This document shows positions 1 to 3,307 of a stretch of 32,000 nt of DNA, piece by piece. Position 1 is the first letter of the stretch. Every line of letters starts with the position of its first letter. The position numbers and the translations under genes are program-made. Origin of the DNA: an uncultured archaeon (GTDB lineage: Archaea > Iainarchaeota > Iainarchaeia > Iainarchaeales > JAAZKV01); contig CAZKBG010000001.1 of the NCBI GenBank assembly GCA_964551375.1, positions 837,329 to 869,328 on the forward strand, given 5' to 3'. Below the pieces are notes generated by a model. It saw only the letters and a list, made by a program, of their open reading frames with translations. It made no database searches and was not told the DNA's origin.

Positions 1-2080
1 CATATGCTGAAGTAATAGTTCCAGCAGGAAGAACTGTGCAGGCAGGACCAAGAACCAAAGTTAAAGTAAAAGCAGTCCAAGCAGATTTTAAGTGAGTGAA
101 ATTATCTTCAGCCCTTACTCTGAAAGTTTTTGCTCCCGCAGTAGTCCAAGTATAAGTTCCCGTTCCAATAGTTGCGCTTGGAATATAATTAAGCGGAACA
201 TTCTCATCGGAAATTCCGTCATTGTTCCAATCAACCTGATACTTGATTAAATCCCCTTCAGGATCAACCGAATTAAAATCAAAAGACTGCATACTATTTA
301 CGCTTGCAGTTCCAGGAGTAGTTCTAACAACAGTAGGCGCGCTGGGAGCAAGATTTGGGTTTAAATTAATTGCGCGGGCAGTGCAAGCTTTTGTTTGAGA
401 AGAACTTGCAATAGTAGCTCCAACGCTTAAACTTTGAACAGCTGAAACAGTATACGCGCACTGCGCAGTGCACAAACCTGAATAAGGAAGAGTGTTTTGA
501 TTAACGCAAGTTAAAGGAGCAGTTGTAGCATTACCGCACGAAACCGAATCAACACCCGCAAGAGATGGATCCGCCTGAAAATCATTAAAATCAACAGTTA
601 TTGTTGAATTCCCGCTAACTCTTCTTGGATTTGGGTTAATTTGAATAACTCTGCAGGTTGGAACAGGAATTGTTCTAACAGTTGCAGTATCTGATGCAGT
701 TTCGCCAAGCGAATCAGTCACAGTAACTGAAAGAGTGGTGTCAGTGTAAATATTTGAACAACTTATAGTTGGAGTTGCTGTGTTTTGATTTGTTAAAGTA
801 CAATTTCCAGCATTATTTGTAATAGCCCAATTCCAAGAAGTAATTGTTCCTCCGCCAGCTCTAGTTGCAGTCAAAGTAGTTGGAGTTCCAATAGTGTGAG
901 TATAAGGTCCCCCCGCATCAACAGAAAGATTGGCAACAATGTTAATCGGACAATTAGCCCAAAGCGCAGAGTATTGTCCTGACTGGGATTGGGACATTAC
1001 TTTAATAGTTTTTGCTCCGACAGTAGTCCAGCTGTGCTGAGCATTAACAGTTGTTCCGCTCGCAACATAACCAGAAGCAGGAAACCATTCTTCAACAGTA
1101 TTTCCGCCATTCCAATTTACCCCATATCTTAAATTTTCATTATCAGTCCCAGTAAAACTAAATGCATAATTATTATTTGCAAGTCCTATTGAAGTGCAGC
1201 TTAAAGTTGGAGTATTGGGATATGGATTTGGCGCAGTAGGATTACAGCAAATTTCACCAGTAGTATAATCACAAATACCAAAAAGGTTTGGAGTTCCAGG
1301 ATAGCATAAATAATCTCCTAGCCCTCCAACCCCATTTACCCAATAAGGATTAATGAAAGGAGTTACAGGAGTGATTTGAGTAGGGAAACCCATTGTGCAA
1401 GTTCCTCCATAAGTAAAGCAAGTCAACTGCTGACCGCAGCAAGATTTTCCTGGAGCGCAAGTTCCGCTTCCAGTGGCATATTGAGGCAATCCCATATTGC
1501 AGGGCATCATATTGCAAGTCTGGCTCATATTTTGAGTGCATGTGTATGTTGCGCCGCAGCATGACTGTCCTATCCCGCATGTTCCGCTGCCATCAGCTCT
1601 GTTTATATTGCTGCAAGGCCCTCCATAAACACAATCCTGCATTACATTCTGCTCGCAAGTGTATTGCGGACCGCAGCAACTCTGCATTGTAGGACAAGTC
1701 CCATAAGCATCAGGGCGGTTATTTGAAGAACATAATCCTGTTGTGCAAACATTTGAACCGGTGCAGGTGTAAGGAGCGCCACAGCAGGATTGTCCCATTG
1801 CGCATGTTCCGCTGTAATTATCTGGACGGTTATTCATAGAGCAGCTTCCGCTCATGCACGTTCCGCCATAATTAGAGCAGGTATAACTTGGCTGTTCGCA
1901 ACAGCGATAAGATTCATTTGGCCAACTGTCTCCGGGCCCTGCGCAGTTTCCCCAATAACTCCAACCATAAGGACAGGAGTACATGCACTGGTCTCCGCCA
2001 ACACAATAAGCCATGGCGGAGGGAATAAAAGTTATGCAAAATATTGCAAGAATAAACGCCCAACCAAAAAATTTTTGCAT
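1..2080 (-). CDS. Secreted cysteine-rich-repeat + PKD-like domain surface protein (5' part only; ORF continues past window start)
   Basis: Absent from the ORF track because it is open to the window edge. Manual reverse-complement translation from ATG (2080-2078) gives MQKFFGWAFILAIFCITFIPSAMA (signal peptide). Tandem six-Cys modules follow (YTC..C..C..NNRPD..GTC..QSCCG, nt ~1391-2008). Then come a PKD-like module (DAGGPYTHTIG...SVTVTDSLGETASDTATV) and two copies of a YxVxWNxxG...WTTxGAKTxxV module. No in-frame stop to nt 1. Listed ORFs 1350-1580(-), 1376-1564(+) and 1790-2083(+) are off-frame or antisense shadows. Confidence 0.75.
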   Translation of the reverse strand, partial: MQKFFGWAFILAIFCITFIPSAMAYCVGGDQCMYSCPYGWSYWGNCAGPGDSWPNESYRCCEQPSYTCSNYGGTCMSGSCSMNNRPDNYSGTCAMGQSCCGAPYTCTGSNVCTTGLCSSNNRPDAYGTCPTMQSCCGPQYTCEQNVMQDCVYGGPCSNINRADGSGTCGIGQSCCGATYTCTQNMSQTCNMMPCNMGLPQYATGSGTCAPGKSCCGQQLTCFTYGGTCTMGFPTQITPVTPFINPYWVNGVGGLGDYLCYPGTPNLFGICDYTTGEICCNPTAPNPYPNTPTLSCTSIGLANNNYAFSFTGTDNENLRYGVNWNGGNTVEEWFPASGYVASGTTVNAQHSWTTVGAKTIKVMSQSQSGQYSALWANCPINIVANLSVDAGGPYTHTIGTPTTLTATRAGGGTITSWNWAITNNAGNCTLTNQNTATPTISCSNIYTDTTLSVTVTDSLGETASDTATVRTIPVPTCRVIQINPNPRRVSGNSTITVDFNDFQADPSLAGVDSVSCGNATTAPLTCVNQNTLPYSGLCTAQCAYTVSAVQSLSVGATIASSSQTKACTARAINLNPNLAPSAPTVVRTTPGTASVNSMQSFDFNSVDPEGDLIKYQVDWNNDGISDENVPLNYIPSATIGTGTYTWTTAGAKTFRVRAEDNFTHLKSAWTAFTLTLVLGPACTVLPAGTITSAY

Positions 2081-2187
2081 TAAAAGCCCACTATATTATG
2101 AATACTTTTGTTCTATAAAAACCTCTTTGTCTTGTGAAAGTTGAGAGAGGGATATAATTAAAACCAAGTAAAACATAATAATTTGCT

Positions 2188-2766
2188 ATGAAAAAAGTTC
2201 TCCTAATAACTGGATTGTTGATTATTGGATTAGTTTTATTTGGATGCACACAACCGGGCAATCCAAATGAAACAAAAACTCCAAACGTGATAAAATATGC
2301 AGAAAATTCCGCTTATTGCGGGGATGAAAGCCTTGCATTAATGCTTCCTATTGATGATGATATTTTAAAAACAACTGATTTTAATTACGGGACAAATTTT
2401 ACATGCGAAAAATTAAGCGAATACTTCGCTGGCAAAGTTCCTTACCTCACAGGATTTGTTTACAAAGCATATTTATACGACAGCAAGGGAATTTACTTTG
2501 TTTACATTCTTTCTGATGAAACTTCAGAGCTTGCCGACTGGCACATGCTCAAAATTTATTCTGATTTTAATGCGCTGAATAGAAATGCGGATATAAAATT
2601 CATGAACAACAACAAAGTATTTGTTGCAACAAACAAAGACGGGTTTGACTGGGCGGGATGGAAATCAGGGAACAAAATAATAATGATTGAGGGACATGGT
2701 GTAAAAGAACTTTACCCAAGACTTGCTGAATCAATCCTTGAAAAACTTCCTTCAGACACACAATAA
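2188..2766 (+). CDS. Putative secreted/lipid-anchored protein, function unknown
   Basis: 192-aa ORF. N-terminus MKKVLLITGLLIIGLVLFGCTQP is a signal peptide ending in a lipobox-like LFGC. No catalytic motif recognised. Confidence 0.6.
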   Translation: MKKVLLITGLLIIGLVLFGCTQPGNPNETKTPNVIKYAENSAYCGDESLALMLPIDDDILKTTDFNYGTNFTCEKLSEYFAGKVPYLTGFVYKAYLYDSKGIYFVYILSDETSELADWHMLKIYSDFNALNRNADIKFMNNNKVFVATNKDGFDWAGWKSGNKIIMIEGHGVKELYPRLAESILEKLPSDTQ

Positions 2767-2788: not shown

Positions 2789-3307
2789 TCAGCACTTTTT
2801 GTCAAAGTATTCTTTAATAGGAGTTATTTGAGCTTCAATTCCATTAACTATCTCAACTTGATTTGGCCTTAGATTATTTAACTCGCTTTCAGTTAAAGTT
2901 GAAATTAATGAAGAAGCTTTTGCTTGATAATTGTTAGCAAGATTAATCATATCCCTAGTTGATTTAACTTCTCTATTTGAACAGCGGATATTTTGATAAT
3001 CAATTGTTCTTGATTCGTTAATCGCCTTGTTTAAGTAATAAAATGCCTCTGCGGCGTATAATTCAGCTTCAATAAATTTCTTTGTGCTGCTTGGAGCGCT
3101 GCCAGCAACTACTGCCAAATCAGTAATATAATCATTCATAGTTCCAAGAACGGGAGAAAAATTTTCGTTTACCCCATACGAAGTTTGAAGCTTTGAAAAC
3201 TGTTCAAGAGATTTCTTTTCAGCATTAGGGTCAAGAGCAGTGCAGCCGAATAAAAGAAGCGCAAACGCTAATAGCAATACTATTGCAACTTGAATTGATT
3301 TATTCAT
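2789..3307 (-). CDS. Putative secreted/lipid-anchored protein, function unknown
   Basis: 172-aa ORF. N-terminus MNKSIQVAIVLLLAFALLLFGCTALDP is a signal peptide with the same LFGCT lipobox-like end. The remainder looks helical, with a C-terminal Cys. Confidence 0.6.
   Translation of the reverse strand: MNKSIQVAIVLLLAFALLLFGCTALDPNAEKKSLEQFSKLQTSYGVNENFSPVLGTMNDYITDLAVVAGSAPSSTKKFIEAELYAAEAFYYLNKAINESRTIDYQNIRCSNREVKSTRDMINLANNYQAKASSLISTLTESELNNLRPNQVEIVNGIEAQITPIKEYFDKKC

Follow-up and report, generated by a model that had tools for sequence, protein, structure and literature searches.

A life attached to other cells is presumed for the small-genome archaea to which this DNA belongs, and their contact molecules are almost uncharted. 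Here we ask whether one such molecule is encoded at the edge of a 32,000-nucleotide stretch from an uncultured archaeon of the order Iainarchaeales (contig CAZKBG010000001.1, G000:C1:837329-869328, hereafter the window), where a gene that begins at position 2080 on the minus strand opens with a run of cysteine-rich repeats. The genome amounts to 1.09 Mb in 10 contigs, is 93% complete, and contains an archaeal small-subunit rRNA (1,321 bits), features on which the label DPANN-type is partly based. The reading that we favor, with some confidence, is that the gene specifies a large surface protein of a DPANN-type archaeon, in which a disulfide-stiffened, defensin-like array would act as the binding head of an adhesin and not as an antimicrobial peptide. 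The architecture itself, a six-fold tandem array of six-Cys modules at the N terminus of an archaeosortase-type anchored PKD protein, is new.

The initial annotation had pointed to an unlisted open reading frame (ORF) of 693 codons running from the ATG at 2080 to the edge of the window, and translation of the minus strand bore this out, since the frame remained open down to window base 2 with no in-frame stop. By adding neighboring DNA of the contig, the full gene was recovered (L002:13957-17409, minus; G000:C1:835956-839408), with a product of 1,150 amino acids (P0002). The sole record of this protein in a collection of 5.8 billion proteins has 921 amino acids and begins at Met230 (P0003). 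Residues 1 to 229 (window 1391-2080), and with them five and a half Cys modules and the signal peptide, are thus missing from this public gene call. We favor the ATG at 2080 because of the TATA-like TTTTATAG located 36 nt before it and because of the conservation data. Over the Cys array, the ratio of nonsynonymous to synonymous substitution rates (dN/dS) against an ortholog from the same genus (L004) was ca. 0.13, with dS near saturation, and the region must therefore be coding and constrained by purifying selection. The octamer TTTTATAG is a candidate archaeal promoter and, judged from its position, would give a near-leaderless transcript.

In the full protein, the signal peptide is followed by six six-Cys modules and, after a Pro-rich linker, by a Trp-rich PKD-like domain, a PF22352 domain, and a Cys-containing spacer. 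Next come a second Trp-rich PKD-like domain, another spacer, two PF22352 domains, a Cys-containing C-terminal domain, and a VPDNG tail. The features located in the window are as follows.

1..2080, minus: 5' 693 codons of the 1,150-codon surface-protein gene; the remaining 1,373 nt lie past window position 1, to G000:C1:835956.
2113..2120, minus: TATA-box-like TTTTATAG, ca. 36 nt upstream of the ATG at 2080, read from the sequence.
2009..2080, minus: signal peptide, residues 1-24, predicted cleavage AMA|YC, read from the translation.
1895..2008, minus: cap module m0, residues 25-62, six Cys spaced x5, x3, x9, x13, CC (Cys span 26-61), starting at the mature N terminus.
1775..1885, minus: canonical six-Cys module m1, residues 66-102, with a weak PF00711 match (E 0.028).
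1667..1771, minus: canonical six-Cys module m2, residues 104-138, from Cys positions and profile.
1550..1663, minus: canonical six-Cys module m3, residues 140-177, the module modeled with AlphaFold2.
1430..1546, minus: canonical six-Cys module m4, residues 179-217, from Cys positions and profile.
1238..1426, minus: long-loop six-Cys module m5, residues 219-281 (Cys span 221-279), with a 30-residue insertion between Cys2 and Cys3.
1196..1237, minus: Pro-rich linker, residues 282-295; NPxYPxTPT is kept in orthologs.
935..1195, minus: first Trp-rich PKD-like domain (LRYGVNWNGG...), residues 296-382, paralog of residues 575-674.
677..889, minus: K319L-like PKD domain, residues 398-468 (Pfam PF22352).
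359..670, minus: Cys-containing spacer, residues 471-574, conserved in orthologs and probably immunoglobulin-like (Ig-like).
59..358, minus: second Trp-rich PKD-like domain (IKYQVDWNNDG...), residues 575-674, matching PDB chain 4xed_A (E 7.3e-5).

Several elements of this architecture had been noticed from the window alone, and they held up. The signal peptide, read earlier as PSAMA|Y, spans residues 1 to 24, and its A|YC junction is common to the orthologs P0004 and P0007 and to the relatives P0006 and P0009. The module described as PKD-like proved to be the PF22352 domain at residues 398 to 468, and both copies of the Trp-rich module are present, the second being the one with the match to 4xed_A. 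Across the full protein, PF22352 scored 38.8 bits over three stretches, above the gathering score of 27, and the orthologs gave 44.6 and 31.1 bits. The Cys-containing spacer (residues 471 to 574) matched no Pfam family. Past the window edge, the protein continues with two more PF22352 domains and the Cys-containing C-terminal domain, ending in VPDNG, 17 hydrophobic residues, and KRRN.

The array is built on a strict cysteine frame. The four canonical modules have spacings of x6, x4, x12, x5, CC (m1); x5, x4, x11, x5, CC (m2); x7, x5, x11, x5, CC (m3); and x7, x4, x13, x5, CC (m4), exactly the C-x5-7-C-x4-5-C-x11-13-C-x5-CC pattern proposed beforehand. The additional units that had been suspected do exist and, far from being partial, both are complete six-Cys modules with other spacings, namely the cap m0 and m5 (x6, x30, x10, x7, CC), the latter being kept in P0004 and P0007. 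A repeat visible at the DNA level, with 28 of 33 nt identical, was also confirmed, except that its copies lie at 1557-1589 and 1782-1814 (a register of 225 nt), so that one interval had been placed 1 base off. Modules are joined by linkers of 1 to 3 residues, with no spacer or obvious cleavage site between them, and they are acidic to neutral (pI, or isoelectric point, of 4.1 to 7.8), with at most one Lys or Arg each.

In an alignment of 22 modules, the six cysteines were the only invariant columns. Outside the cysteines, m1 to m4 are the fastest-changing globular part of the protein, with 37% identity to P0004 versus 51 to 65% for the PKD domains. The cap m0, by comparison, is the best conserved of the Cys modules between orthologs (56 to 59% non-Cys identity), and P0006 and P0009 open with a similar cap. 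One natural variant was found at residues 152 to 183 of P0006, where only four cysteines remain, Cys3 and Cys6 having been lost jointly.

To which fold might this module belong? Neither Pfam nor NCBIfam holds a model for it. When single modules were scanned against Pfam, the best match was to PF00711 (Defensin_beta), with an E value of 0.028 and 14.9 bits, below the gathering score of 21. PF13841 (Defensin_beta_2) reached 1.7 at best, and each of the two families was matched by 2 of the 22 modules at E ≤ 10. All other matches were single stray hits to EGF, AWS, or Fe-S models. With the 22-module profile against all PDB sequences, the top hit was avian beta-defensin 3 (AvBD3; 7lzl), with an E value of 0.0024, 21.7 bits, and all six cysteines aligned, followed by gallinacin-2 (E 0.8). 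Only this profile reached the beta-defensins, and a four-module profile retrieved nothing meaningful from the PDB. As a yardstick, when AvBD3 is the query, spheniscin-2, a genuine beta-defensin, scores 21.6 bits, and human beta-defensin 3 has an E value of only 0.8. The AvBD3 segment scored 19.5 bits against 4.3 ± 3.8 for 3,000 shuffles with fixed cysteines, 3 of which reached the real score, for a hit that was picked post hoc. Given this drop, the match appears to rest partly on non-Cys residues. Alignment of the archaeal modules with three avian defensins by hhalign gave a probability of 55% (P = 1.2e-4).

Structure prediction led in the same direction. The AlphaFold2 model of m3, obtained with a 12-module alignment, shows a small beta-rich fold whose last strand includes the CC pair; its mean predicted local distance difference test score (pLDDT) is 79.3. 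A Foldseek search with it returned only human beta-defensin 1, at TM scores of 0.42 to 0.44. A model of residues 24 to 297 made without an alignment was unusable (pLDDT 36.8). The spacing C-x(4-8)-C-x(3-5)-C-x(9-13)-C-x(4-7)-CC is the consensus of the beta-defensin family, and m1 to m4 all conform to it. Beta-defensins belong to the trans-defensin superfamily, with C1-C5, C2-C4, and C3-C6 pairing. A C3-C6 disulfide predicts that Cys3 and Cys6 would disappear together, as they do in the P0006 variant, although this also fits other topologies that contain the bond.

The module is thus beta-defensin-like in its cysteine framework, as read from the sequence, and probably so in its predicted fold, while membership of the beta-defensin family is not established, the curated threshold not having been reached. 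That the modules represent a genuine trans-defensin fold in Archaea, used as a tethered tandem recognition domain at the surface of symbiont-type cells and acquired by shared ancestry or independent invention, we put forward as a tentative possibility. To our knowledge, this fold class has been described so far from animals only, and our literature search found no paper linking defensins to DPANN surface proteins. The earlier view that the module could not be assigned to a named family stands insofar as no curated family scored above threshold, but it had missed this weak and consistent lead. The suggestion of a knotted array was not borne out, the only fold signal being beta-defensin-like. 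Other candidates were discarded, the EGF-like, CC-domain, and Fe-S readings after matching single modules only (E 0.08 to 1.8) and the knottin reading because none of the sequence or fold searches returned one.

Next, we looked at the distribution of the module. A 37-position profile (A1), built from the four canonical modules, was searched against 1.84 billion representative proteins at E ≤ 0.001 and retrieved three proteins, P0004 (E 1e-15) and P0005 and P0006 (E 1e-4 each). Since a profile made from four modules finds others in separate proteins encoded by different genomes, the modules are not just a chance arrangement of cysteines, and by sequence they form a real but rare family. Local iteration with hidden Markov models brought the total to ca. 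27 confident modules in seven proteins, with further ones in LamG, Big_7, and PKD proteins. Carriers were found in 6 of the 215 species genomes of the phylum, in two families of a single order. Within the genus, only one of the other 20 genomes has the module. The idea that homologs might be restricted to small-genome archaea therefore holds as far as it was tested, all carriers lying in one archaeal order. Word-indexed homolog searches were less productive, the Cys region recovering only the window's own 921-amino-acid record and the module region of P0005 only P0005 itself. No paralog of the canonical module was found elsewhere in the genome, where a regular-expression scan located one more C-C-C-C-CC stretch, near residue 103 of a 1,015-amino-acid protein that shares the C-terminal tail.

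The relatives place the module in varied company. P0004 is an ortholog of 1,162 amino acids with the same architecture and 53% identity, encoded on a Joint Genome Institute (JGI) metagenome contig (L005:3992). P0005 (540 amino acids; "Calx-beta domain protein [uncultured archaeon]" in NCBI) combines two Calx-beta domains, three modules, and a tail of VPEIPP plus a transmembrane segment, whereas P0006 (1,063 amino acids) carries about a dozen modules of several subtypes. In other proteins, the module is thus joined to Calx-beta (P0005), LamG, Big_7, and PKD domains. In the same-genus ortholog L004 (CAZJAE010000022.1, "uncultured archaeon"), the loop of the second Trp-rich PKD-like domain accommodates a LamG/Laminin_G_3 domain, whose distal half matches PF13385 at an E value of 1e-10.

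Amid this LamG insertion (L004:7900-8520), a single in-frame stop occurs at L004:8338-8340, after which the same frame resumes; misassembly, pseudogenization, or recoding might account for it. The genes of P0006 and P0009 (L020:6001-9192 and L021:6001-11049) are inserted directly after EF-2 in the conserved archaeal S12-S7-EF2 ... EF1alpha-S10 string, and the EF-2 gene of L020 contains an intein with a LAGLIDADG domain. In another family of the order, a lipobox-type protein of 706 amino acids, otherwise unannotated (L008:400-2520, G100:C26), has two six-Cys units in its middle part, one a canonical module and one divergent, and a unit of the C-C-C-CC-C type near the C terminus.

The opposite end of the protein indicates how it might be held at the cell surface. 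A [VI]PD-x-N/G motif followed by a transmembrane helix and a basic tail closes three large proteins of this genome (IPDNN...KRRN, VPDSNP...RNKKGKK, and VPDNG...KRRN), while the orthologs, P0005, P0006, and P0009 end in tails with IPDNEP, VPEIPP, or VPEVPS. Sortase-like systems recognize a motif together with a hydrophobic helix and a charged terminus, each archaeosortase subfamily having its own motif (PMC6098224). The same-strand genes downstream of the surface-protein gene encode an RIO/ABC1-like kinase, ribosomal proteins S15 and S3Ae, DUF92, CDP-archaeol synthase, and a small archaeosortase. The last is an ORF of 182 amino acids (L002:10093-10641, minus; PF09721 at 34.3 bits, cutoff 25.7), located 3.3 kb downstream and adjoining carS. 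The protein is probably processed by an archaeosortase and anchored through a lipid. With the anchor at the C terminus, the Cys modules are the part of the protein farthest from the membrane.

On its other side, the gene adjoins two small secreted proteins (window 2188-2766, plus, and 2789-3307, minus), whose signals end in a lipobox-like LFGC. They had no match in Pfam and are syntenic with the locus of the L004 ortholog, where the ORFs have 191 and 172 amino acids.

The genome also offers a candidate for oxidizing the cysteines. A DsbA-like thioredoxin-fold protein (G000:C1:240506-240967, minus; PF13462, E 1e-32) carries a CPFC active site and a signal that ends in a lipobox-like LLGC, and from its sequence it is a candidate extracytoplasmic disulfide oxidase. 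With this protein and several other large, secreted, Cys-rich proteins encoded, extracytoplasmic disulfide formation is plausible, and we infer that disulfides form and pair within the modules. The other Cys-rich proteins (5 to 8% Cys, all in G000:C1) are C1_+_2_292875 (752 amino acids), C1_+_1_12507 (1,829 amino acids), C1_+_1_87203 (1,222 amino acids), and C1_-_1_182176 (1,015 amino acids, with a PD-x-N tail). Among them, one has Kazal-like repeats (...PVCG.NGVTYGNKC...) and another has long Cys-rich repeats of ca. 200 amino acids.

Taken together, a coherent proposal can be outlined. The protein would be exported by its N-terminal signal peptide and held in the membrane by the tripartite C-terminal signal (VPDNG, hydrophobic helix, and KRRN), which the small archaeosortase 3.3 kb downstream probably processes, leaving the protein lipid anchored. 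At the end of a stalk of PKD-type Ig domains, six small domains with three disulfides each would follow one another, adopting or mimicking the beta-defensin (C-C-C-C-CC) scaffold, and they might be oxidized by the extracytoplasmic DsbA-like enzyme. The invariant Cys frame, combined with fast-changing loops, could then form a rigid, protease-resistant tip for binding the surface of a partner cell or a polymer. An adhesin head fits best because of the distal position of the array, its fixed scaffold with variable loops, the lectin-like and Ig-like company of the module, the LamG insertion, and the patchy distribution. The initial annotation had already spoken of an extracellular, disulfide-bonded, adhesin-like binding array. 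The signal peptide, the C-terminal anchor, the PKD/Ig domains, the Calx-beta, LamG, and Big_7 relatives, and the DsbA-like protein are all in line with it, and the binding and the disulfides are what we infer from them. Some observations weigh against this proposal. A search of the genome for VKOR found none, and oxygen may be lacking in the habitat. Of the 20 other genomes of the genus, 19 do not have the gene, which hence does not serve a core function. In addition, the NCBIfam sorting-signal models matched none of the tails of P0002, P0004, P0005, and P0006 at E ≤ 1.

The main rival to an adhesin head is an inert role for the array, as a stalk or spacer or within an S-layer-like coat, where it would contribute length and stability with no specific ligand. 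EGF repeats play such a role in some eukaryotic proteins, and the tight tandem packing of the modules, with linkers of 1 to 3 residues, is compatible with it, as is the combination of an invariant Cys frame with a PKD stalk, typical of structural surface proteins. Even the divergence of the loops could be due to relaxed constraint. However, the array is located at the distal tip and not between the anchor and a recognizable head, its N-terminal cap is conserved across otherwise different proteins, and presence in only 1 of 20 other genus members is more to be expected of an accessory protein for interactions than of a coat. We regard this explanation as unlikely, although it deserves to be taken seriously. 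Beta-defensins being the only sequence and fold leads, the modules might instead be true defensin-type antimicrobial or membrane-attacking units, displayed on the protein or cleaved from it, that would harm the envelope of a host or competitor. Yet beta-defensins are cationic, while the archaeal modules have no more than one basic residue, and no lytic enzyme is encoded nearby, where the neighbors are kinase-like, ribosomal, and lipid genes and small lipobox proteins. The acidic to neutral modules, their short linkers, and the lack of protease sites or spacers between them argue against a released cationic antimicrobial, and we consider such a role improbable.

Two further alternatives question the disulfides and the translation of the array. 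The cysteines could bind a metal (Zn, Fe-S, or Cu) or carry out redox chemistry instead of forming structural disulfides, as six invariant cysteines per ca. 36 residues, including a CC pair, and a habitat probably low in oxygen might suggest; one very weak match to LRV_FeS (E 1) was also obtained, for 1 of the 22 modules. However, the array is exported behind a Sec-type signal peptide in an organism that encodes a DsbA-like oxidoreductase, there are no patterns of His or Asp ligands, Cys3 and Cys6 disappear as a pair in the natural variant, as bonded cysteines would, and the confident beta-rich model resembles a disulfide-stabilized fold. All this makes metal binding or a redox role very improbable. 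Least credible of all is that the 5' part is untranslated, with the true start at Met230 and the array a chance open frame. It would agree with the only protein record in the 5.8-billion collection but would deprive the protein of its signal peptide. It is also at odds with the orthologs P0004 and P0007, open and conserved across the entire array, with the dN/dS of 0.13, with the TATA-like box ahead of the ATG at 2080, and with the presence of the Cys module in independent proteins.

The protein is a concrete and testable candidate for a contact molecule, with a predicted exported head made of a compact disulfide domain that databases do not name, an uncatalogued sorting signal, and a likely processing enzyme encoded near the gene. 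Should the modules really have a beta-defensin fold, this fold class would not be confined to animals, and its original use may have been binding and not killing; a prokaryotic system would then be available for studying the role of the scaffold before it became an antimicrobial peptide. The public gene call from Met230 illustrates how easily such modules are missed in annotation.

Like vertebrate beta-defensins (PF00711 and PF13841), such as AvBD3 (7lzl) and human beta-defensin 1 (PDB 2nlq), the archaeal modules have ca. 36 residues and a C-C-C-C-CC order of six cysteines, spaced very similarly; Cys4 is preceded by Gly, and the CCG at the end falls in the last predicted beta-strand. The loop between Cys3 and Cys4 is longer in the archaeal modules (11 to 13 residues versus ca. 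9) and that between Cys4 and Cys5 is shorter (5 versus 6). Furthermore, beta-defensins are free animal peptides of 4 to 5 kDa, whereas the archaeal modules are arranged in tandem and tethered in an anchored protein of 1,150 amino acids. Beta-defensins are also cationic and the archaeal modules acidic or neutral, so the latter fall outside the description of small secreted cationic peptides.

The rest of the protein has more familiar counterparts. Like the PKD/Ig surface proteins of archaea and bacteria (PF22352 and PF00801), it has a body made of such domains, here three PF22352 and two divergent PKD-like domains, to which its relatives add Big_7, Calx-beta, and LamG. It differs in the head, a chain of an uncatalogued six-Cys module in place of a lectin, an enzyme, or a beta-helix. 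As in the substrates of archaeosortases (ArtA with PGF-CTERM and ArtB to ArtE), a large secreted surface protein ends in a short motif, a helix, and a basic tail, and a gene of the exosortase/archaeosortase family is present in the same genome, in this case nearby. The motif, however, is [VI]PD-x-N/G instead of PGF, and the enzyme, with 182 amino acids, is unusually small.

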